Notes under the pieces: generated by a model
Databases searched by the model: none
What the model was told of the DNA's origin: nothing
The model's input: the letters and a program-made list of their open reading frames with translations, nothing else
Part shown: piece after piece, positions 1 through 64,000 of the stretch
Layout: the number at the start of each line of letters is the position of its first letter
Numbering within the stretch: the stretch's first letter is position 1
Program-made: the position numbers and the translations under genes
Source of the DNA: a virus
Taxonomy: Duplodnaviria; Caudoviricetes
Strand: one strand, 5' to 3'
IMG/VR virus record: IMGVR_UViG_3300037067_007008
Location: 1,634-65,633 of that record
Length of the DNA: 64,000 nt

Positions 1-756
1 TGGAGCACATCCGCCGACCAGGTTCCTCAATACTACTCCATCCTCTCACCACCTCCTTTGACAGTGCAGCTGGCTCCTGCACCTACGGACACCATGAACC
101 TGGACCTCCTCTCGGTCAGTAGCGGAGCTGCCCTTTCCCCAACTGCCACTGCAACGGTTCTTGGTGTCCCAGATGATATGGCCTGGATAGTCAAGTGGGG
201 TGCAATGGCTGACCTTCTCAGTAAAGATGGCCCTGCCCAGGATCCTGAGCGTTCCGCCTACTGTCAGCAACGCTATGAACAGGGTGTGGAGATGGCTAAG
301 ATAGCTCCCATGCTAATCTCAGCTAGAGTAGCTGGCACTCCACTGAACTTCTCCAGCACCTATGAGATGGATGCCTACAACCTGGACTGGCAGAACACTG
401 CTGCTGCAGCGCCCACTGACCTTCTCCAAGCTGGCAGGAACCTTGTAGCCTTCTATCCTAAACCTATTGGTGCAACAGCTATCCTCCTGGATATAGTCCA
501 GAATGCCCCCATCCCAGCAGCTGATGCCACCAACATAGAAATAGGCAGAGAGCAGCTAGAGGCTATCCTTGGTTATGCTGAGCACCTGGCAATGTTCAAA
601 GTAGCAGGTGATGAGTGGAAGGCAACCAACTCTGGATATGAGAACCTGGTCAAGTCTGCTGCCATCTATAACTCACGCCTGGCGGCCTCTGCGCTCTTCA
701 AAGATGTAGTCAAGGGTAACCCTAGCCGTGAAGAAACTGAGAGACCTAGACTCTAA
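1..756 (+). CDS. Head-tail adaptor/connector-like virion protein (5'-truncated at window edge)
   Basis: Frame 1 is open from base 1 (WSTSADQVPQYYSILSPPPLTVQLAPAPTD...). The P-x-YY...L-x-P-x-P pattern is typical of adaptor proteins. It lies directly upstream of tail genes. Confidence 0.55.
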   Translation, partial: WSTSADQVPQYYSILSPPPLTVQLAPAPTDTMNLDLLSVSSGAALSPTATATVLGVPDDMAWIVKWGAMADLLSKDGPAQDPERSAYCQQRYEQGVEMAKIAPMLISARVAGTPLNFSSTYEMDAYNLDWQNTAAAAPTDLLQAGRNLVAFYPKPIGATAILLDIVQNAPIPAADATNIEIGREQLEAILGYAEHLAMFKVAGDEWKATNSGYENLVKSAAIYNSRLAASALFKDVVKGNPSREETERPRL

Positions 757-770
757 CCTGGAGCTTTATA

Positions 771-3356
771 ATGGCAGACTTTCATTACCAGCGTGATACA
801 AACAGATTCTTCTGCCTTGGCTTGGATCTCAATAGGCCAGTCGATTCAGTAAAATCCCTGAAGTATCCATACCTTAAGAATGTCCGCACCTATCAAATAG
901 GCAAGATAGAGCCTCGCCCTGGACTTACCCTGATTGGCAGCGTGAACGGCCCAGTCCACAGCATCCGCCGCCTCAATAACCCGCGCACTGCTGACTGGAC
1001 CCGCATCATAGGCAGTGGCACGGTGCTCAACTATGGTCAAGCCTCCTTCACACAGATCTCCACAGGCTTCAGTGGTAACCCTCTAGCCCTGGTCCCCTAC
1101 CGCCCAGCCCAGTCCCCTGACCCCTGGATGTATGTCATGGACTCTTTGAAGCAGGTCAAGGTAGACGTAGACGGCACTCTCCACTCTGTTGGTCTCTCTG
1201 TGCCTACCAACTACCCTACTGTGACCCGCGCCGCAACTCACTTCAAAGCCATCCTCGACGCTGACACCAACACCACAGGCTGGACTGGTGGACCCTCCTT
1301 TGTGGGTGGCATCGTAGGTAACGTCACCAATGTCAGCACCACCATAGCTACTATCCTCTATGACTCTGGTGCAACAGGCTGGGCTGTCATCCAACCCGCA
1401 GCATTCACTGGCATCAAAGAAGGTAGGATAGTCAAAATCACCGCTGAACAGACAGTCATCCAGTCAGCCTCTGAAGGCTCTGCCTCCTCCACCACCATCA
1501 GCTCCATAGCTGCCATGCCCAGTGACGCCACCCTCTTTGCCATTGTCCTGGCTGCCGCTCCCCTTGAGCTGGCTGCCAATGGCCTGATAGAGAACACCAC
1601 TATCGGTGAGACAGTACGTATCATTGCCGTGGTGGATGGCCCCGCTGATGTCAAAACCATCCTGTGTAAGCCTGCAGGAGCCTGGGCCGCAACCAACACC
1701 GTCTACATCCGCCCATCCTTCCGCTGCTACCTCGCCGGAACCTTCGCTGCAGGTGCCACCATCACCAACACTGGTGTCGAATCTGGAGTCAACATCACTG
1801 AAGACTACTCTCTTCCATTTACTGGCTACGCCACCTCTCCGATCTTCGCACCCTTGGATCTCTCCAAGATCACCAGCACTATTGCAGCTACCAAGGACTC
1901 ATACATCTCATTGAGGATTACTCTCACCAGACCCAACGACCTAACCACCCTCAGAGTCCTCCTGGGCTGCACCAACACTGCAGTCCATGCAGACATGTTC
2001 ACCACAGACTACTTCTACAAGGACTTCACCCCTGCCGACGTAACCAAATCCGGCATTCTCAACGTCAAGATTGCAGAGTGGATTCCTGTGGGCAGCCCCA
2101 ACTGGGAGACCATCTACCACTTCGAACTCCAAGCCACCATCCGTCCTCCCAACAACGCAGAGGAGCGTGGTTCCATCACCAACATCTACAGCCACATGCT
2201 GATTGACTCTATGTATCTTGCCGGGGAACCTGGACCGGATATGGGTAAGACTGGCCAACCTTACATTTACAGATACAGAGCCAGAGTCAACTCCACCGGA
2301 GCAGCCAGCAACTGGTCCCCACCTACCTGGGAGCGGTTTGACCTCCGTGGCGAGACTCCCTCCATAGCCATTCCAGCCCAGTACACCCTTGCCACTGAAG
2401 CTGACTACATAGACTTCCAACGTCGTGGCGGCACCATCCCGGACAAGTGGTACTACGTCGGCTCAGTCCTCAACTCTGCCTCTCCAGTCAGCTTCGTAGA
2501 CAAGTATACTGATGACGTAATCATAGCCAACCCCTCTGAGGACCAGGTGCACTATCAGCTCTGGCCCACCATCGGTGCCCCAGTCACAGGCACTACCGTC
2601 AAAGTCACTGGTGTAGCCGTCACCAGCACTGCAGCCTTCAGTCTAAGCTGGGCACCCCTGACCCAGATAGAAATAGCAGGAGTCCTCTATACCATCCGGG
2701 CTGTCTACTCCACTTCTGCCTTGGAACTCTACGAAAGCGCAGCTGCAGCTGGGGCTGTCACCTTCAGAGTCCCAGAACCCATTCTTCAGGCTCAACCTCT
2801 CCCATGCTTCTGGGGACCAATCGGTAATACATTCTTCGCTTGTGGTGACCCTACAAACCCTCAGCGCCTCTACTGGACCAACCTTGGCAGCGCCGACGAC
2901 ACAGCCAGCATCAACCGGATAGACATCACCACCCCATCAGAACCTCTAATGAATGGAGTGCTCTACAATGGCCGCAGCTATGTCTGGAGTTCTGAGCGCT
3001 TCTTCCAGATCCTCCCAGACAAGAATGACGAAAGTGGCAACCCAGTCAGCTGGACCTACATAGAAGTACCCAATGGTAAAGGCCTCTTCGGTCGCTGGTC
3101 CTTCACCGGAGTCCAAACCCCTCCAGGCTTCATCCTCTACTTCATGGCTAGGGAAGGAATCTACAAAACCGATGGTGGTGCCCCAGTCTCCATCACCGAC
3201 GAAGACATGCGCCCACTGTTCCCCAATGAAGGGAACCTTGGCGTGACAGTCAATGGCATCGCTCCACCCAACGTCATCTCAGCCCAGGCTGCTAACCATA
3301 GACTTGCCTACATTGATGACTATCTCTACTACGACTATGTAGATACAACGGTCTAA
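771..3356 (+). CDS. Tail tubular/nozzle (head-stabilisation-like) beta-propeller protein, apparently N-terminal part only
   Basis: 861 aa. Propeller-like motifs (FFACGDPTNPQRLYWTN, LYFMAREGIYKTDGG, SITDEDMRPLF), internal jelly-roll and FN3-like inserts. Ends abruptly at YYDYVDTTV. Confidence 0.6.
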   Translation: MADFHYQRDTNRFFCLGLDLNRPVDSVKSLKYPYLKNVRTYQIGKIEPRPGLTLIGSVNGPVHSIRRLNNPRTADWTRIIGSGTVLNYGQASFTQISTGFSGNPLALVPYRPAQSPDPWMYVMDSLKQVKVDVDGTLHSVGLSVPTNYPTVTRAATHFKAILDADTNTTGWTGGPSFVGGIVGNVTNVSTTIATILYDSGATGWAVIQPAAFTGIKEGRIVKITAEQTVIQSASEGSASSTTISSIAAMPSDATLFAIVLAAAPLELAANGLIENTTIGETVRIIAVVDGPADVKTILCKPAGAWAATNTVYIRPSFRCYLAGTFAAGATITNTGVESGVNITEDYSLPFTGYATSPIFAPLDLSKITSTIAATKDSYISLRITLTRPNDLTTLRVLLGCTNTAVHADMFTTDYFYKDFTPADVTKSGILNVKIAEWIPVGSPNWETIYHFELQATIRPPNNAEERGSITNIYSHMLIDSMYLAGEPGPDMGKTGQPYIYRYRARVNSTGAASNWSPPTWERFDLRGETPSIAIPAQYTLATEADYIDFQRRGGTIPDKWYYVGSVLNSASPVSFVDKYTDDVIIANPSEDQVHYQLWPTIGAPVTGTTVKVTGVAVTSTAAFSLSWAPLTQIEIAGVLYTIRAVYSTSALELYESAAAAGAVTFRVPEPILQAQPLPCFWGPIGNTFFACGDPTNPQRLYWTNLGSADDTASINRIDITTPSEPLMNGVLYNGRSYVWSSERFFQILPDKNDESGNPVSWTYIEVPNGKGLFGRWSFTGVQTPPGFILYFMAREGIYKTDGGAPVSITDEDMRPLFPNEGNLGVTVNGIAPPNVISAQAANHRLAYIDDYLYYDYVDTTV

Positions 3357-3360
3357 GACT

Positions 3361-4941
3361 ATGGCCTTACTTGATGGACTTTGGGGATACTGGAAATTTG
3401 AGGAATCTTCTGGAACTCGTTATGACGCTTCTGGGATGGGGCATGATGCAGTTATCTATGATTTTCCTGCCAAGCCAGCTCCTGGGAGGGCAGCAGCTAA
3501 AATAGGTTATGGGGTTTTATACAGTTATCCAACCTCCAGATTACAAGTTTATCATGGAGAAATCTGGGCAGCAGGAACTGCCTTTACATTTGCAGGGTGG
3601 TTTATATATTCTGACCCAGGGTTACCTTATGCTGTTGAAGAATTAGTAATGACTGTAGTATTTGGCACTTCCTATCTAGTTGACTTTGCTTTGCATATCT
3701 TCGCTAAACCTACTCCTAACCTGGCAAGACTTTTATTTTCTCTTACTCCAACCTCACCACTAATAGAAGTAGATAACTTCACACTAACCTATGATACTCC
3801 GCACTTTATAGCTATAGTAATAGAAGATGTTACTGCATCATTATACGTAGATAATGTCTTAGTGGGTTCTGTTACTACCATAGATCCTATTGGCCCTGTA
3901 ATGTATAACTATATGTTATTTGATGGTGAAGGCACTACTGGCCAAACTGGGACCAAGATATATGATGAGTTTATCGTATGGAAAGCTGCAAAGACTCCAG
4001 CAGAGTTAACTGCTTTATGGAATAATGGTGCTGGCATAAACTTCCTTAATACTATGGGTACCAGCTGCAATACCCTTGCTTACGCGGTAGACCTTACCTC
4101 AGGCAGGGATGGATGGATGTATGACAAATATACTCCTAGCATCATCACCCATTACGGAGAAGAAGGTTCAGGTGTTCATGACACCTTATGTGGTAGTGCC
4201 ACTGGAAACATCTACCAACTCACCGGAGAAAGTGACGATGGAGTAGCCATCCCCTGTGCAGTTCGCACCCCAGCACTGGACCAGGGTGACCCTCGATTTC
4301 ACAAGTTGTATGGTGACATCCTCCTTGACTGTGACACCAACAGCACCAACCTCACTGTCATCCCCTCAACTGACAATTTTGTAACAGCTGGCCTCACCAC
4401 CGTTGTCAACAACGCCACCCGCACCAAAGTTCCCATCTCCCTCAACGCCACCGGGTGGGTCTCTGGCCGTAACGTAGGCTTGGACATCTCCTGGGACACC
4501 CTCAACACCAAGCCTCTTCTCTATGCCTGGGAGCCGCGCTTCACTGAGGAATCAGCCAAAGTCCTAGCCTATTCGTGGGAAACCTGCTGGATCACTCATG
4601 AACTTCCTGGATACTTCTACCATGGCTATCTCTATGTGGTGCACGTTAGCACCGCTGACCTCACCTTCTACATCCTCAACCCTGACAGCACCGCTGCTGC
4701 CACCGTCACCATCCCCAACAGCGGAGGCACCCTTTACTCCAAGTCCTTCATCCGCTTACCAGTTGTAAAGGGTAACATCTTCAAGTATAAGATCTCTTCA
4801 ACAGCCCAATTCCGGCTGAGTGGTGAAGAATCAGAACTCCTGGTCAAACCCTGGGGAATGGGTGGAGAGTGGAAGCATGAGAAGATATTCCAGGATGTGC
4901 CTCAGGGGGCTCCTGCTGAACAGGTGGAGGGGGTTGAATGA
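3361..4941 (+). CDS. Tail protein: N-terminal LamG/ConA-like domain plus nozzle-like C-terminal module (copy A)
   Basis: LWGYWKFEESSGTRYDASG...FTFAGWF...LYVDN...IYDEFIVW is LamG-like. The last ~290 aa are paralogous to those of 6745-8502. Confidence 0.6.
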   Translation: MALLDGLWGYWKFEESSGTRYDASGMGHDAVIYDFPAKPAPGRAAAKIGYGVLYSYPTSRLQVYHGEIWAAGTAFTFAGWFIYSDPGLPYAVEELVMTVVFGTSYLVDFALHIFAKPTPNLARLLFSLTPTSPLIEVDNFTLTYDTPHFIAIVIEDVTASLYVDNVLVGSVTTIDPIGPVMYNYMLFDGEGTTGQTGTKIYDEFIVWKAAKTPAELTALWNNGAGINFLNTMGTSCNTLAYAVDLTSGRDGWMYDKYTPSIITHYGEEGSGVHDTLCGSATGNIYQLTGESDDGVAIPCAVRTPALDQGDPRFHKLYGDILLDCDTNSTNLTVIPSTDNFVTAGLTTVVNNATRTKVPISLNATGWVSGRNVGLDISWDTLNTKPLLYAWEPRFTEESAKVLAYSWETCWITHELPGYFYHGYLYVVHVSTADLTFYILNPDSTAAATVTIPNSGGTLYSKSFIRLPVVKGNIFKYKISSTAQFRLSGEESELLVKPWGMGGEWKHEKIFQDVPQGAPAEQVEGVE

Positions 4942-6293
4942 CAATACCTAATGTTCTTTTTGTGGGAACAACAGGGCAGGCAGCCACGGACAGCTTATAC
5001 TTATTTAAGTATGTCCCTGGGGGTGCATCGGTAACTACTGAATATACAGAGACCCCAACTCCACAAACTGTACCGCATTGGTTTGAAAACAGTGTTGCCC
5101 TTAGATCATTTGGGGAAACAAGTGTCCTCGTACTTAATAATCATGATGATAATCAATTTGAGGTCAAGGTTTTTACAGGAACCACGTTAACTCGAACTAC
5201 TGCAATAGCAAACACATATCCTTACTCAGAAACTGACTTAACCAACAAAAGCCTTGTGATGATTTCTGAGTCTGAATTTTATTTGTTGATCGGTCTGCCT
5301 TTAATATCTGGAGGAAGCTTCACAGATTTATATAGTTACCACACAACGGATGGCGGGGCCACATTCGACAATGCTCTTATCATTCGCTTGGGTTATCCCT
5401 CAGCTCAGATTGCTGTGATGGGAAGCAAGCTCTACGTTCTATGCATGAGCAATGCAGATGATAACTACCACCTCTATACAAGCACTCTTGGTTTGAACGC
5501 ATGGTCAGACCTTGGCATTATTTCAACCCTGCCATCGTCATCTTTCTGGTTTGCTGATCTGGCTTCTCATAACAGCAATTTGTATATTCAGGGAGTTTGG
5601 TATGACGACGACACTGGGGATTCTTTCGGTGGCATATGGGAACTGACTGTAGATGATCCCACCACTATGTCTCTACTTCATACTGTCTCAGGATATTATG
5701 ACTTTCTTGATGGAGGATTTGCTTTCCAAGGACCTGCAAGGCTTCATGCAGTCTTTACTATTTCAGATGGTGTAGGTGGCCCTGCTACTGCCCTCTTTCT
5801 AGAAAGTCTGGATGGTGGTGCAACATGGGCTGACACAGAAATTCTTACACTGCAGTCCTGGAATCATGTTGCTGGATGGATTTCTCTGGAAAATCATAAT
5901 GATGAATACTTAATCTACACTTCCTTAGACTTAGGAGCTTCAGCTACTCTTCCTACAACAACTCCAACATCCTTCTTTATTTCCTCCGACCATGGTTATA
6001 CGTTCCAAGAAATTACTACCCCGCTTGGAGATACAATCACGTGGAATACCTGTCCCCAGGCTGTCTGCTTCTCTTCCCAAAATACTCCATCAGCCTCCTG
6101 TACCTCAATCTCCAACGTCTTCCTAGACCCCAGCACTATGCTAATCACAGGTACAGGTATTGGTGCTGATGCCACTGAATGGCGTATTATCCGCACTGCT
6201 GACTCAGCAATAATGGATTCTGGCCTTGGGCTTACCCCCACGTTTAGCTTCATTGGTCAATACGAAGTACAATATCAACTCCAGTTTAAGTAG
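4938..6293 (+). CDS. BNR/Asp-box beta-propeller (sialidase-like fold) tail-associated protein
   Basis: Three Asp-box-like motifs: HTTDGGATF, ESLDGGATW, ISSDHGYTF. ATGA-coupled to the upstream gene. Confidence 0.55.
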   Translation: MTIPNVLFVGTTGQAATDSLYLFKYVPGGASVTTEYTETPTPQTVPHWFENSVALRSFGETSVLVLNNHDDNQFEVKVFTGTTLTRTTAIANTYPYSETDLTNKSLVMISESEFYLLIGLPLISGGSFTDLYSYHTTDGGATFDNALIIRLGYPSAQIAVMGSKLYVLCMSNADDNYHLYTSTLGLNAWSDLGIISTLPSSSFWFADLASHNSNLYIQGVWYDDDTGDSFGGIWELTVDDPTTMSLLHTVSGYYDFLDGGFAFQGPARLHAVFTISDGVGGPATALFLESLDGGATWADTEILTLQSWNHVAGWISLENHNDEYLIYTSLDLGASATLPTTTPTSFFISSDHGYTFQEITTPLGDTITWNTCPQAVCFSSQNTPSASCTSISNVFLDPSTMLITGTGIGADATEWRIIRTADSAIMDSGLGLTPTFSFIGQYEVQYQLQFK

Positions 6294-6301
6294 GAGATAT
6301 C

Positions 6302-6733
6302 ATGGCAGCATTTGTAAAGTTTGACTGCTTCGTTGAGAATGAGGCTGAGAAGGTCCATAACCTTGGCAGCGACACCCTGAAGCTCGCCCTCACCAACACA
6401 GCTCCCACTGCAGCCACAGACACAGTTCTGGATACTGTAACCAAGCATCCACCTCCAGCTGCAGCCAATGGCTATCCTGCAGGCGGCGAGGCTGTCACTA
6501 TCACCTCCAGTGCTCAATCTGGAGGCACCTACAAACTCGTTGGCAACAGTGTGGTCTTTACCGCAACTGCTGGAGGCATCGGTCCATTCAGATACATTAT
6601 CTTGTACAACAGTTCTGCCTCCGATGCTCTTATAGGCTATTGGGACTACGGCTCCAGTACTACCTTACCCAGTGCAGGAGATACACTTACTGTTACCCTG
6701 AGCCCAACAAATGGTATCTTACAGGCTGCGTAA
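6302..6733 (+). CDS. Conserved small phage tail protein
   Basis: MAAFVKFDCFVENEAEKVHNLGSDTLKLALTN...PFRYIILYN...LIGYWDYG, a pattern recalled from phage tail modules. SD AGGAG. Confidence 0.6.
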   Translation: MAAFVKFDCFVENEAEKVHNLGSDTLKLALTNTAPTAATDTVLDTVTKHPPPAAANGYPAGGEAVTITSSAQSGGTYKLVGNSVVFTATAGGIGPFRYIILYNSSASDALIGYWDYGSSTTLPSAGDTLTVTLSPTNGILQAA

Positions 6734-6744
6734 TAGGACTCTAA

Positions 6745-8502
6745 ATGGCCAATGATTTCAGTGGTGATCCACATTGCATATCTCTATACCGCTTTGAGGA
6801 TGAAGCCCTACTTACTGACAGCAAAGGGTCTAATACCTTATCATTAACTGGCACATCAACCAGTTCTACCACAGTATTTAAAGAGGGGGCAGCTTCAGGA
6901 TTTCTTAACAATAATGGTATTTTATCCAGAACTGACACTAACCTAAGTGCGGCATTTCCCCTTAAAAGTGGTACCACCAATAAGATAGTTTCCTGGACTT
7001 TCTGGTTCAGACTTACAGCTGATATGCCTGGGTTTTCTTATATGGTGGCTAAACTTGATCCTGGTACAAACGCAAACTCTTTTGCTGCAGCAGTCAACTC
7101 CACAACACATCAACTTAATATATTTAAGGGTTACAATAGTGGAGCAAGTATAGAAGGTTATGCATTCACAGCTACTACCATATCACTAAATGTTTGGTAC
7201 CACGTTGGCGTAACATATGAGGATAGTACCAAAATCCTCAATGTCGTACTTTGGGATGATGCTACCGCAACTAAGTATAGCAGTGGTGCCATAACTCAGG
7301 TACAAAACATAGTATTAACTACAGTGAGTTTTACTCTGGGAGGCTACCCAAGTTTTGGCAAGACCTACACTGGATATTTAGATGAAGTTGTCATATTTGA
7401 TGACATCCTAACAGCTAATGAAATAGATCAAATAAGAGCAGGTACGTATACAACCAAAACCATTCTTACCCTAACTGCTGATACTGGAATGTTCACAGTT
7501 ACTGGCCAAGACGCTGTACTTACCCGTAGCAATGATAAGGTATTCAGTGCTGACCCTGGAATGTTTACCATATCAGGGCAGAATGCCACATTTAGTTCTT
7601 CTCTTTGGAGTAATACAGGCTGCACCTTCACCCTTACAGCACCTGACCAATACAACACCCTCGTACACTCCACAGGCCTCATGGAAGGCCGTAGCGGGTG
7701 GTTCCTTGACAAGTACACCCCTGGAGCACTCACCCATTATGGAGAAGAGGGCTCTGGAATTCATGACATCCTCCTTGGCTGCATAAACGGTGGAGTCTAT
7801 CAGCTCATCGGCACCAACGATGCAGGCACTGGCATTCCCTGCCAGATTCGTACCAAGTCCCAAGACCAAGGAGACCTTCGCTACAATAAGCTCTATGGTG
7901 ACATCATGCTGGACTGCAACACAGGAGGCACCTCTGTCTCAGCCACTCCTGGCTTCAATGATCACACCCTTATCACTCCGCCTATCACTGTCTCCAATGT
8001 AGTCCGCACCCAGGTCCCAATCACCATCGGCACCGAGTGGCAGACAGCCCGTAACATCTCCCTGAGTCTCCAGTGGACCCACAACGGAGCAACCCCAGAA
8101 TACTTCTACATGTGGGAACCCAGATTCACCGAGGAGGGGGCCAAACTTGCAGCCTACTCCTGGGATACCTCCTACCTTACCCATGGCATCGACGGTTATT
8201 TCTATCACGGTTACCTATACCTGGTTCACATCTCTACAGCCAACCTAACCTTCACCATCTTCAACGAGGACGGTACCACAGCAGCCTCTGTCACAGTCAC
8301 CCAAAGTGGCGATGAACACCATAAGGACTTCCTTCGCCTCCCTGTAATCAAAGGTAAGGCATTTAGGTATAGACTATCCAGTGCCACCGAATTTAGAGTG
8401 GAAGGCCAGGAATCAGAACTGCTTATCAAGGAGTGGGGCTCCGGTGGCCCATGGCAACGTCGTCGAATCTTCCAGGATGTTCCTAGTGGGAGTGCAGCAT
8501 GA
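6745..8502 (+). CDS. Tail protein: N-terminal LamG/ConA-like domain plus nozzle-like C-terminal module (copy B)
   Basis: SLYRFEDEALLTDSKG...WTFWF...WYHVGVTY...GYLDEVVIFDDILTANEI is LamG-like. Two ADxGMFT(V/I)(T/S)GQ repeats. C-terminus paralogous to 3361-4941. Confidence 0.6.
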   Translation: MANDFSGDPHCISLYRFEDEALLTDSKGSNTLSLTGTSTSSTTVFKEGAASGFLNNNGILSRTDTNLSAAFPLKSGTTNKIVSWTFWFRLTADMPGFSYMVAKLDPGTNANSFAAAVNSTTHQLNIFKGYNSGASIEGYAFTATTISLNVWYHVGVTYEDSTKILNVVLWDDATATKYSSGAITQVQNIVLTTVSFTLGGYPSFGKTYTGYLDEVVIFDDILTANEIDQIRAGTYTTKTILTLTADTGMFTVTGQDAVLTRSNDKVFSADPGMFTISGQNATFSSSLWSNTGCTFTLTAPDQYNTLVHSTGLMEGRSGWFLDKYTPGALTHYGEEGSGIHDILLGCINGGVYQLIGTNDAGTGIPCQIRTKSQDQGDLRYNKLYGDIMLDCNTGGTSVSATPGFNDHTLITPPITVSNVVRTQVPITIGTEWQTARNISLSLQWTHNGATPEYFYMWEPRFTEEGAKLAAYSWDTSYLTHGIDGYFYHGYLYLVHISTANLTFTIFNEDGTTAASVTVTQSGDEHHKDFLRLPVIKGKAFRYRLSSATEFRVEGQESELLIKEWGSGGPWQRRRIFQDVPSGSAA

Positions 8503-8978
8503 CCCGATACTACCCATCCCAGCAAGAACTTCATGCCCCCGACAAACTTGAACGTGTCCTCCGTGATGCCTATGACCGTATCTATAAACTCAGCACCCAG
8601 ATGGCTGTCCAGGATGCCCTAAACAAAACTGCCTCCAAGGTGATCGCCCCAACCATAATCACCACTCCTCCCACCTCCATCAGCAGCGGCACCTCTGGGT
8701 CCAACCGCACTGGACATGTCACCATCACAGCAGTCAACTACACAGCCCAGAGCATCGACAACTTCATCCAAGCCACAGCCGCCGGAGTAGTCATCTCTCT
8801 CCTTAGCGCCATCACCCATTCCGGTGAAGAATACATCATAGACAATAACTCCACTGGAGATATCACCATCACACCAAGTGTGGTAGGCCAAACCCTCCAA
8901 GGTGAGACCACCCAAACCCTCTCTCCCAACGACGTTGCCCACATCTATGCAGACGGTACCAACTGGAGGTTCAGTTAA
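8499..8978 (+). CDS. Tail fibre-associated protein
   Basis: 159 aa. Coiled N-terminus, C-terminal fibre-tip-like module (EEYIIDNNSTGDITITP...HIYADGTNW). Coupled to neighbours. Confidence 0.45.
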   Translation: MTRYYPSQQELHAPDKLERVLRDAYDRIYKLSTQMAVQDALNKTASKVIAPTIITTPPTSISSGTSGSNRTGHVTITAVNYTAQSIDNFIQATAAGVVISLLSAITHSGEEYIIDNNSTGDITITPSVVGQTLQGETTQTLSPNDVAHIYADGTNWRFS

Positions 8979-9988
8979 TGTCATACTTCGCAAATGTAAC
9001 AGTCAAAGATTTCCTCGGTGAGTTTGGCAACAACGTGATGGTCAGCCCCATGGGGTCTATATTTGTGGTAGAACCTGTCAAACTTGTAGGTGTCCCGTTC
9101 ACTGTAGCAGGAGCCATTGACGGTAACTTCTGGGTCAACACCACAGCCACTGGCACAGCCTCAGCCACAGTAGCAGCAGGCATCCTCACCCTTGCCACCA
9201 ACCCCTCTGGCGCAGGCACAGGCAACGATATCTTCACCAACAGTATCCGCAACGCTCGTTACGCTGGTGGAGTCCACAACTACTATCGCGCCAACGTCAG
9301 GGTCCCTGCAGCCACAGGAGTCAACACCCGCAGGTGGGGATGCTTCGATGCCAACGATGGCTACTATTTCTCCCACGACGGCACCACCCTGAGCATCAAT
9401 TCTCGCAAGGCTACCACAGACGCCGCCCCTGTTTCCTCAGGCTCCTTCAATGGTGAACTTGGCACCACGCTTGTCTTAGACACCAACGTCCACACCTACG
9501 AAATCCATTACACCACCAAATCCACATGGTTTATGTATGATGGCAAAATCCTCCACAAGCTCTCTGCCACTACCACAACCCTCACCTCCACCATGCATCT
9601 CCATGTAGGTATGCAGTGTGTCAACGGTGGGGCCAACGCCAACAACAACACCCTCGAAGTCTGGGTTGTCACCATCAATCGTGCAGGTCAGCTCCAGACC
9701 CAGCCCAAGTCAGCACGTATTGACTCCCTTGCTACCACAGTCCTGAAACTCGGCCCTGGTGTCCTACACTCCATAGTCTTCGGCTCCCTTCCTGCCACAG
9801 CAGGTACCATCACTATCTACGACAACACTTCTGCTGCTGGCACCATCCTTCATGCAGCCACTGTAGACACCACAGCTACAGCAATCAAACTCCCAGTCTC
9901 AGTAGACTTCAAAGGACTCTCATTCAGCACTGGCCTCACCATAGTGACAGCCACAGCTGCTTCAGATTTCACAGTAATCTATGAATGA
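8978..9988 (+). CDS. Thr-rich tail/virion protein (beta-sandwich)
   Basis: 336 aa, all-beta pattern (VHTYEIHY...WFMYDGKILH), last gene of the tail block. Confidence 0.45.
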   Translation: MSYFANVTVKDFLGEFGNNVMVSPMGSIFVVEPVKLVGVPFTVAGAIDGNFWVNTTATGTASATVAAGILTLATNPSGAGTGNDIFTNSIRNARYAGGVHNYYRANVRVPAATGVNTRRWGCFDANDGYYFSHDGTTLSINSRKATTDAAPVSSGSFNGELGTTLVLDTNVHTYEIHYTTKSTWFMYDGKILHKLSATTTTLTSTMHLHVGMQCVNGGANANNNTLEVWVVTINRAGQLQTQPKSARIDSLATTVLKLGPGVLHSIVFGSLPATAGTITIYDNTSAAGTILHAATVDTTATAIKLPVSVDFKGLSFSTGLTIVTATAASDFTVIYE

Positions 9989-63194: not shown

Positions 63195-64000
63195 ATGTTA
63201 GATACTTACCTGAGTATAGCTGGTAAAGTGCTCCTTCGCTGCCCCATGGCTGGGCCTCTCCTAGCTCGTGACTGGGTAGCAAATGCCTTTCGTCGTATCG
63301 CAGAACGCCGCGCCTGGTCCTGGCTTATTAAGCAGGGCCAGTTCATCATGTATCCTCTCTACAATGGTGGCACCGTCACCACCACTCAAGGCAGCACCAC
63401 AGTCACAGGTATAGGTACAGCCTTCACAGCTGCCATGGCAGGTCGTCAGTTCCGCCTCACCACCACAACTCCCATCTACACCGTCACAGCTGTAGATATT
63501 GTCCTGCAAACCCTTACCTTAGACCTTCCCTGGGGTCCAGCCTCCTACATAGGTCATGCCTATGAAATCTATAGTGCCTATGTCTCCCCACCGACAGACT
63601 TCAACTACTTCCTGACAGTCTGGGACCCTAACTTCAACTGGCAGCTTCACCTAAACATCACCCAGCGTGAAGTCAATACATGGGATGCACAACGCTCTAA
63701 TCGTGGCCAAGCTTACTTAGTCTCTCCTAGGGACTACTACACTCCATCAGGTTCCACCATACCTCTACCCCGCTTCGAGGTCTGGCCTCATGTAACCTCT
63801 GCCTATGTCCTGCCCTTCCTCTATCTCTCCAGAGCCACTGACCTCCAGGACTCTGGAGCACTTCTCCCTAGATATATCCGAGGAGATGTCCTATTGGAAC
63901 TGGCCTTGGCAGAGGCAGCCCGATGGCCTGGGCCGGGACTCTCAGTAAACGAGAAAGGCTACACCCGCCCCTCCAACCCCTACTTCCACCCCCAACTGGC
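63195..64000 (+). CDS. Head-tail adaptor-like protein (3'-truncated; absent from the ORF track)
   Basis: Open from ATG 63195 to the window end: MLDTYLSIAGKVLLRCP...YVSPPTDF...PRFEVWPH...LLELALAEAARWPG. Confidence 0.65.
   Translation, partial: MLDTYLSIAGKVLLRCPMAGPLLARDWVANAFRRIAERRAWSWLIKQGQFIMYPLYNGGTVTTTQGSTTVTGIGTAFTAAMAGRQFRLTTTTPIYTVTAVDIVLQTLTLDLPWGPASYIGHAYEIYSAYVSPPTDFNYFLTVWDPNFNWQLHLNITQREVNTWDAQRSNRGQAYLVSPRDYYTPSGSTIPLPRFEVWPHVTSAYVLPFLYLSRATDLQDSGALLPRYIRGDVLLELALAEAARWPGPGLSVNEKGYTRPSNPYFHPQL

Follow-up and report, generated by a model that had tools for sequence, protein, structure and literature searches.

A predicted podovirus tail nozzle divided within its propeller, with two candidate C-terminal partners, in a metagenomic phage record

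In the 65,633-bp IMG/VR record IMGVR_UViG_3300037067_007008 (Duplodnaviria; Caudoviricetes), rated complete by CheckV, we analyzed a stretch of 64,000 nucleotides (positions 1634-65633 of the record, hereafter the window) and propose that it encodes a podovirus tail nozzle in two pieces. The first piece is an N-terminal half (N-half, protein P0001), and the second occurs in two versions, C-half a (P0002) and C-half b (P0003). We consider it probable that the nozzle gene underwent fission, that its one N-half is served by two duplicated C-half partners, and that both partners are present in the nozzle hexamer.

Results

Single-Chain Homologs

P0002 and P0003 aligned over their last ~285-300 amino acids (aa; 51% identity, E 2e-109), and their N-terminal parts were unrelated. 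This bore out the initial annotation of this DNA, which had described two open reading frames (ORFs) with different N-termini and a shared C-terminal module; all of its ORFs were present on the + strand, all of the motifs that it quoted were found, and the module was conserved in relatives.

A protein search with P0001 returned 79 homologs, each of which was compared with the domains of the window. Single chains of ~1060-1440 aa, in which a P0001-like part was followed by the shared module, made up 54 of the 79; another 21, including the closest homologs (51-92% identity, 844-989 aa), were without the module. The first ~840-940 residues of the fused homologs were matched by 98-100% of the P0001 chain. 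For instance, the fused proteins P0022 (1125 aa, 43% identical to P0001) and P0026 (1222 aa) covered 98-100% of P0001, and their C-termini matched the P0002 module with 36-42% identity (E 9e-57 and 8e-62). P0001 terminates in DDYLYYDYVDTTV, its last residues being YLYYDYVDTTV, and the stop codon falls in the turn past the strand YLYYDYVD. The P0022 sequence RLDYYDDYLYFNYLDTQSARRTLVYIFDRGGWWFDVY matched this end of P0001 (RLAYIDDYLYYDYVDTTV, then the stop) followed by NTLAYAVDLTSGRDGWMYDKY of P0002, and the fused junction YLYFNYLDTQSARRTLVYIF corresponded to the P0001 end plus NTLAYAVD of P0002, which mapped the break to P0022 residues 841-844.

Together, P0001 and the module of either P0002 or P0003 covered the fused homologs from end to end. 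The initial annotation had taken the shared module for the missing continuation of the 861-aa protein, and the single-chain homologs indeed hold both parts in the same order; it had also considered that the 861-aa protein might be complete in all homologs, but 54 of the 79 carried both parts in one chain, and the break lay inside a hairpin turn of the propeller in the fused model (see below). Assembly chimerism was judged an unlikely source of the fused homologs, which came from many independent contigs and from the isolated Tunturi phages.

When the shared C module of P0003 was searched against a library of 1.84 billion representative proteins, 770 matches were obtained; the best 150 listed included 146 new representatives, of which 106 were fused and ~20 were complete stand-alone C-halves (273-1064 aa). 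In five fused relatives (P0113, P0118, P0205, P0222, and P0120), which measure 1770-3547 aa, the C module occupies residues ~925-1160 and is followed by as many as 2400 more; these are nozzles with giant C-terminal extensions. Neither P0001 nor the shared module had a match in Pfam or PHROGs, and a sequence search of the PDB with the family profile gave chance-level propeller matches only (E 0.3-0.7). In a phage collection searched with tblastn, P0002 had no match, and P0001 matched the Tunturi phages alone.

Predicted Fold and Position of the Break

We folded the fused homolog P0022 with AlphaFold, using a 57-sequence alignment, and obtained a mean predicted local distance difference test score (pLDDT) of 89.1 and a predicted template modeling score (pTM) of 0.73. 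The top Foldseek matches of this model were those of cyanophage A4, SU10, the crAss001 muzzle protein, Pa223, Carin-1, T7 gp12, and P22 gp10 (E 4e-18 to 1e-7). With VIA-align, the Z scores were 28.5 for Pa223, 26.2 for SU10, 26.1 for P22 gp10 (residues 7-1004 of the model versus 2-472 of the chain), and ~20-21 for T7 gp12. Based on these matches, on the SU10-type adaptor gene upstream, and on the occurrence of the Tunturi 1 and 2 homologs in podoviruses, P0001 plus the C module is predicted to be a podovirus tail nozzle of the T7 gp12/P22 gp10/SU10 type. The alignments of the solved nozzles extended to P0022 residues ~1004-1010, and ~115 residues follow.

Unrelated seven-bladed propellers, including WD40 proteins and virginiamycin B lyase, aligned to residues 36-52 through 896-911 of the P0022 model (VIA-align). 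This range brackets residues 841-844; thus, the propeller spans the break. The DSSP strands on the N-half side of the break were 826-830 and 833-840, and those on the other side were 845-851, 856-860, 866-871, 880-884, and 891-897. In the model, therefore, the cut is at a tight hairpin turn between neighboring strands of the last propeller blades, and the C-half would give the final five strands.

When P0002 was folded alone, residues 293-513 were predicted with pLDDT values of 77-93. Residues 296-397 matched the C-terminal platform of the SU10, T7, A4, Kp9, and Pan3 nozzles (Z 6.6-7.7, VIA-align), and residues 397-505, which lie beyond the end of the canonical nozzle, resembled a generic CBM6-like beta-sandwich or jelly roll (Z 6-7.6). 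The five propeller strands (residues 236-292), in contrast, reached pLDDT values of only 35-47 when folded alone versus 82-94 in the fused chain, a soft indication that they depend on the N-half. The platform touches the adaptor in solved nozzles, and in T7, where it binds the adaptor, three of its strands come from the N-terminus of the protein (PMC6702177); by this analogy, both the propeller and the platform would be built from two chains here.

History of the Split

In a maximum-likelihood tree of the conserved propeller part, the 18 split N-halves formed one clade nested among the fused forms (support of 99 in the Shimodaira-Hasegawa-like approximate likelihood ratio test). The split C modules also formed one clade (99/98), the branching of which mirrored the N-half tree. 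The nesting of this split clade, together with the identical domain order of distant single-chain nozzles, speaks for a fission that is derived and took place at one hairpin. The module-less proteins P0029, P0036, and P0065 sat elsewhere in the tree, which implies at least four changes of state.

In every split relative, across seven independent viral contigs plus additional metagenome contigs, the C-half gene came after the N-half gene, usually with overlapping stop and start codons; one relative, L028, had a gap of ~700 nt. We rejected a fusion of the two products by read-through or frameshifting: C-half a is read in another frame than the N-half, we saw no evident slippery site, and the junction differs among relatives.

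Two further candidate kinds of interrupted nozzle were observed. At L026:7223-11142, on another viral contig, a fused-type nozzle was broken elsewhere, inside the C module, into overlapping frames of 1010 aa and 305 aa, through either a frameshift in sequencing or a split of its own. Stand-alone C-halves of 293-657 aa on four short metagenome contigs (L031, L032, L033, and L035) were 41-45% identical to the window module, and these sequences suggest a second, more distant split group.

The Two C-Half Genes

Two C-halves were found only in the window and in its closest relative, contig IMGVR_UViG_3300037067_012059 (L002/L010); the other split relatives with enough flanking sequence had one C-half each. 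No second N-half was found in the genome, so that the gene count agreed with the one N-half gene and two C-half genes of the initial annotation. Each window C-half had its own ortholog in L002 (85% identity, 100/100 support), where the two C-half genes are adjacent. Between the window and L002, the ratio of nonsynonymous to synonymous substitution rates (dN/dS) was 0.069 in the N-half and, in the modules, 0.111 (a) and 0.098 (b). The values of ~0.1 in both modules indicated that both copies have been kept by purifying selection.

Both C-half genes are complete ORFs on the same strand. No inverted repeats flanking the C-half cassettes were found; the two imperfect 19-20 nt pairs within positions 700-9000 flank neither of them. 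With no suitable repeats, DNA inversion and cassette recombination were rejected, and separate regulation was rejected as well, promoter-like and terminator-like sites being at or below the shuffled expectation. Since a single co-directional late block holds both genes and shows no excess of promoter-like or terminator-like sites, they are probably expressed together, which favors a mixed or an ordered nozzle over switching. The host-range switch between interchangeable halves that the initial annotation had envisaged was therefore not borne out, there being no DNA switch signals within this single block; its remark that neither an invertase nor a reverse transcriptase was involved fits the lack of inverted repeats around the C-half genes, although no search for either enzyme was run.

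Accessory Domains

The C-halves differ in what precedes the shared module. Of the two LamG domains assigned by the initial annotation, that of P0003 (residues 77-227) was firm, scoring 43.3 bits for Laminin_G_3 against a gathering score of 27.6 (E 5.4e-11). That of P0002 was probable: its N-terminal part was homologous (E 6.5e-15) to a domain of L007 that itself scored 42.5 bits (E 9.5e-11). An hhalign comparison of the N-terminal domains of P0002 and P0003 was not significant. Between its LamG domain and its C module, P0003 also has tandem 24-aa repeats, ADTGMFTVTGQDAVLT and ADPGMFTISGQNATFS, which are spaced by 72 nt in the DNA (window 7476-7591).

Across the split clade, the sequence in front of the module ranged from none to ~775 aa (LamG, BNR, and unknown domains). 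It was missing in L003 and L006, whose bare 284-aa C-halves start with MAEHTLIYAKD, four residues ahead of the first strand, and it amounted to ~240 aa (LamG) in L007, ~570 aa in L004, and ~750 aa in L005. In L002, the front of C-half a was an unrelated 776-aa sequence, and that of C-half b contained BNR_2. Thus, the accessory domains of the window and of L002 were wholly different despite the 92% identity of their N-halves and the 85% identity of their modules; such full replacement, by analogy, is the pattern known from receptor-binding proteins.

Extra sequence was also found on the other side of the break. P0020 has a ~520-aa BNR-containing extension at the end of its N-half, and P0036 has an immunoglobulin-like domain. 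With accessory sequence on either side of the break, the hairpin behaves as a permissive display site. In split N-halves of 920-990 aa (L003:12560-12862, L004, L005, L007, and P0007-P0019), a C-terminal tail of 80-100 aa follows the YFDYP motif and is built from short repeats, for example F[ST]D[SD]LNxWxD[ST]; this tail is absent from the window N-half, P0029, and P0032. The C-half P0085 has repeats of a similar kind in its N-terminal part (TDSLNIWTDS...TDSLNGWADK).

P0004, which is encoded between the two C-half genes, showed 24% identity over 206 aa to the C-terminal extension of P0020 (E 1.6e-4) and has three Asp-box-like motifs (S/T-x-D-x-G-x-T-F/W), so that, by its sequence, it may be another nozzle-associated propeller that is free-standing in the window. 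It was not present between the two C-halves of L002, and it had the Asp-box motifs alone in common with the BNR-bearing C-halves.

Locus Layout

Positions 1-8502 of the window are a co-directional gene run on the + strand, from the end of the adaptor gene through P0003 (table 1). The adaptor gene starts upstream of the window and in full occupies record positions 1064-2389. The same order of adaptor and then nozzle was observed in L002-L004, L006, and Tunturi 1, and most relatives for which sequence upstream of the nozzle was available have the adaptor gene there, at a distance of ~7 kb in L005.

Table 1. Features of the split nozzle locus, in window coordinates
Feature	Position	Strand	Basis or remark
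Head-to-tail adaptor, C-terminal 251 of 441 aa	1..756	+	Pfam SU10_adaptor, E 4.2e-07
Nozzle N-half, P0001, 861 aa	771..3356	+	Predicted N-terminal platform strands and most of the beta-propeller, with inserted domains
Nozzle C-half a, P0002, 526 aa	3361..4941	+	Residues 237-514 match the fused-nozzle C-terminal profile
Probable LamG/ConA-like accessory domain of C-half a	3361..4065	+	Laminin_G_3, below gathering score
Five predicted beta-strands completing the last propeller blades, C-half a residues 237-292	4069..4236	+	Equivalent to P0022 845-897
Predicted platform jelly roll, C-half a residues 293-397	4237..4551	+	VIA-align versus nozzle C-terminal platforms
Predicted extra C-terminal jelly roll, C-half a residues 398-513	4552..4899	+	CBM6-like matches
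P0004, 451 aa, BNR/Asp-box-like, between the two C-half genes	4938..6293	+	Weak BNR match, E 0.009
P0005, 143 aa, function unknown	6302..6733	+	phrog_644, E 3.9e-15
Nozzle C-half b, P0003, 585 aa	6745..8502	+	Residues 304-580 match the fused-nozzle C-terminal profile
Laminin_G_3 (ConA-like lectin/glucanase) domain of C-half b, P0003 residues 77-227	6973..7425	+	Pfam PF13385
Shared C module of C-half b: five propeller strands, platform, and extra jelly roll (predicted)	7654..8502	+	51% identity to P0002 236-519

The G+C content was 0.46-0.47 over window positions 4001-8000 (the 3' part of the P0002 gene, P0004, P0005, and the 5' part of the P0003 gene) versus 0.50-0.54 in the flanks; the low value in the region of the accessory domains is consistent with imported modules. 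Overlapping the P0003 stop codon, a 159-aa ORF (8499-8978) showed a weak match to a phage depolymerase C-terminal beta-sandwich (Pfam PF25692, E 0.0011), and its first 58 aa were common to a 436-aa protein 3' of the C-half in L006. At the far end, the ORF 63195-63998, the N-terminus of which resembles tail fibres (several PHROG tail-fibre families, E 1e-4 to 1e-5), runs off the linear record, and a 5'-open ORF opens the record (positions 2-304; L056); they may belong to a single gene that spans a circularly permuted end.

Discussion

We propose the following scheme for the evolution and assembly of this nozzle. Gene fission inside the beta-propeller would have given the C-half a free N-terminus, on which the lineage would load exchangeable accessory domains (LamG, BNR-like, and others). 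Six N-halves would make up the nozzle body, and each would be completed by a C-half, whose strands would close the propeller and whose platform would seat the ring on the adaptor. From the propeller, each C-half would extend its N-terminal domain, and this domain would bind, or perhaps cleave, glycans of the host surface; the domain families suggest that the accessory domains are probably surface-glycan binders or enzymes. The C-half gene was duplicated in the window phage and in its closest relative, which would provide the N-half with two partners bearing different accessory domains and the nozzle with two specificities. Mixed assembly of both C-halves seems to us the most likely outcome and is the reading that we prefer.

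Other uses of the two C-halves were weighed against mixed assembly. The strongest competitor, although still rather unlikely, is that each virion or nozzle position takes either C-half at random, so that progeny of mixed specificity would serve as bet-hedging. One N-half does have two competing partners, and C-half a starts 4 nt past the N-half stop while C-half b follows 3.4 kb downstream, so that their supply may differ; on the other hand, no repeat, inverted repeat, or promoter or terminator excess separates the genes, and random filling of six sites would rarely yield pure virions.

An ordered hetero-hexamer, in which the C-halves alternate as a-b-a-b-a-b on six identical N-halves and the obligate three-fold nozzle shows both accessory domains, we regard as unlikely, a little more so than random use. 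Purifying selection on both copies in two genomes and the position of both genes in one co-directional block would suit such a particle. So would the distribution of the differences between the paralogs: their identity was lowest in the platform, which makes the ring and adaptor contacts in T7 (44% versus 57-58% elsewhere), and about half of the a-lineage-specific changes were located there. The platform divergence may equally reflect relaxed constraint, however, and other split relatives manage with one C-half, which makes homo-hexamer assembly ancestral. If the ordered arrangement were true, the nozzle would be three-fold, with two glycan-binding modules hard-wired into the gate for DNA ejection, and the binding of a receptor by either module could have a direct effect on the channel-closing propeller, a reading that we likewise regard as unlikely.

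It appears improbable that one paralog has left the nozzle as a docked tail accessory or a soluble protein, with only the coupled copy a completing the propeller. Copy b does lie apart from the N-half gene, behind two other genes, and the paralogs are just 51% identical. Yet both copies retain the invariant residues of the five strands and the platform and are equally close to the single-copy orthologs (60-61% identity in the strands), the C-half genes of L002 are adjacent, and five strands look unable to fold alone. Finally, although frameshift errors do occur in metagenomic assemblies and the fused relative L026 is broken at another place, we find it scarcely credible that the split is such an artefact or that two ancestral genes were fused in other lineages, given that the same hairpin is split on at least seven independent viral contigs and in ~20 protein clusters with proper starts and different inserted domains, that some split relatives have an N-half with an 80-100-aa tail, and that distant canonical nozzles are single chains of the same topology with the split clade nested among fused forms.

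Several points weigh against the preferred scheme of mixed assembly by duplicated C-halves. The record is metagenomic and known from its sequence alone, and the presence of both C-halves within the same virion is accordingly something that we infer. Complementation of the propeller is deduced from a fused homolog sharing 37-43% identity with the window proteins, and the blades were assigned from DSSP strands and alignment ranges rather than from model coordinates. The putative carbohydrate binding of the accessory domains follows from their domain family only; moreover, the N-terminal part of P0002 scored 17.1 bits for Laminin_G_3 (E 0.006), below the gathering score, and its LamG region was poorly predicted in the AlphaFold model (pLDDT 25-60). 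Because the two paralog lineages were only weakly sister (82/57), it is also possible that one copy was acquired from another split-nozzle phage instead of being duplicated.

The closest known counterpart of the proposed architecture is the Pseudomonas podophage A1002, in which cryogenic electron microscopy showed a nozzle split into the nozzle-base gp42 and the nozzle-rope gp39 (PLoS Biol, Nov 2026; PMC13730344). There, gp42 is without two and three strands of two blades (~50 aa), and the C-terminal propeller-C and platform-C parts of gp39 supply them (PMC13730344). As in the window, the second chain has extra N-terminal domains and a C-terminal module with five strands (~55 aa in the window) followed by the platform; its N-terminal part serves host attachment in A1002, where it docks the fibres, and probably in the window phage as well. 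The topology appears equivalent, as judged against the published description and not by superposed coordinates. No sequence match to P0002 was detected by tblastn in the phage collection, in which the membership of A1002 was not established, and the PDB copy searched did not include the A1002 structures. The window differs from A1002 in that its genes are adjacent and in N-to-C order, its fission is documented by close fused relatives, it has an extra jelly roll, it carries lectin-like or BNR-like accessory parts in place of a fibre-binding rope, and its C-half is duplicated, no duplication being reported for A1002. A split nozzle is thus already known, and what is new is one core with two completing subunits; among the papers covered by our literature search, none dealt with nozzle paralogs or hetero-hexameric nozzles.

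Dual tailspikes are found in SP6 and K1-5, in which two receptor-binding proteins on one six-fold tail broaden the range of surfaces recognized. Those tailspikes dock via adaptor domains on a complete nozzle and adaptor, whereas the binding modules of the window would be a covalent part of the chains that complete the nozzle. The single-chain nozzles T7 gp12, P22 gp10, SU10, cyanophage A4, and the crAss001 muzzle resemble the predicted assembly in having platform-N, a seven-bladed propeller with insertions, and platform-C (Z 20-28.5 against the fused homolog), and the genes of single-chain podovirus nozzles likewise lie 3' of an adaptor gene; they are, however, one polypeptide, while the window chain is cut inside the propeller and its second piece occurs in two versions. 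The only isolated phages with a detectable homolog are the Tunturiibacter phages Tunturi 1 and 2, ~63-kb podoviruses with an adaptor-like gene upstream. Their gp31 (1307 aa, annotated as "virion structural protein" by prediction and not by proteomics; PMC11924767) has the N-part and the C module fused and is ~28% identical.

Among the tail proteins of short-tailed phages, the nozzle, which gates the ejection of DNA, is the most conserved. The present lineage offers an unusually clean record of how a propeller was cut, with steps that can be traced through surviving fused ancestors and through split forms both bare and decorated, and the new chain end has become a site for swaps of host-binding domains that are as free as those on tail fibres. 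For annotation, this means that many "hypothetical" proteins of 270-1060 aa encoded beside a "truncated" nozzle gene represent the remainder of that nozzle. If one core accepts two completing subunits, it would be a compact route to dual specificity and, if true, a natural scaffold by which binding domains of choice could be mounted on a podovirus tail for laboratory work on phages and their hosts.

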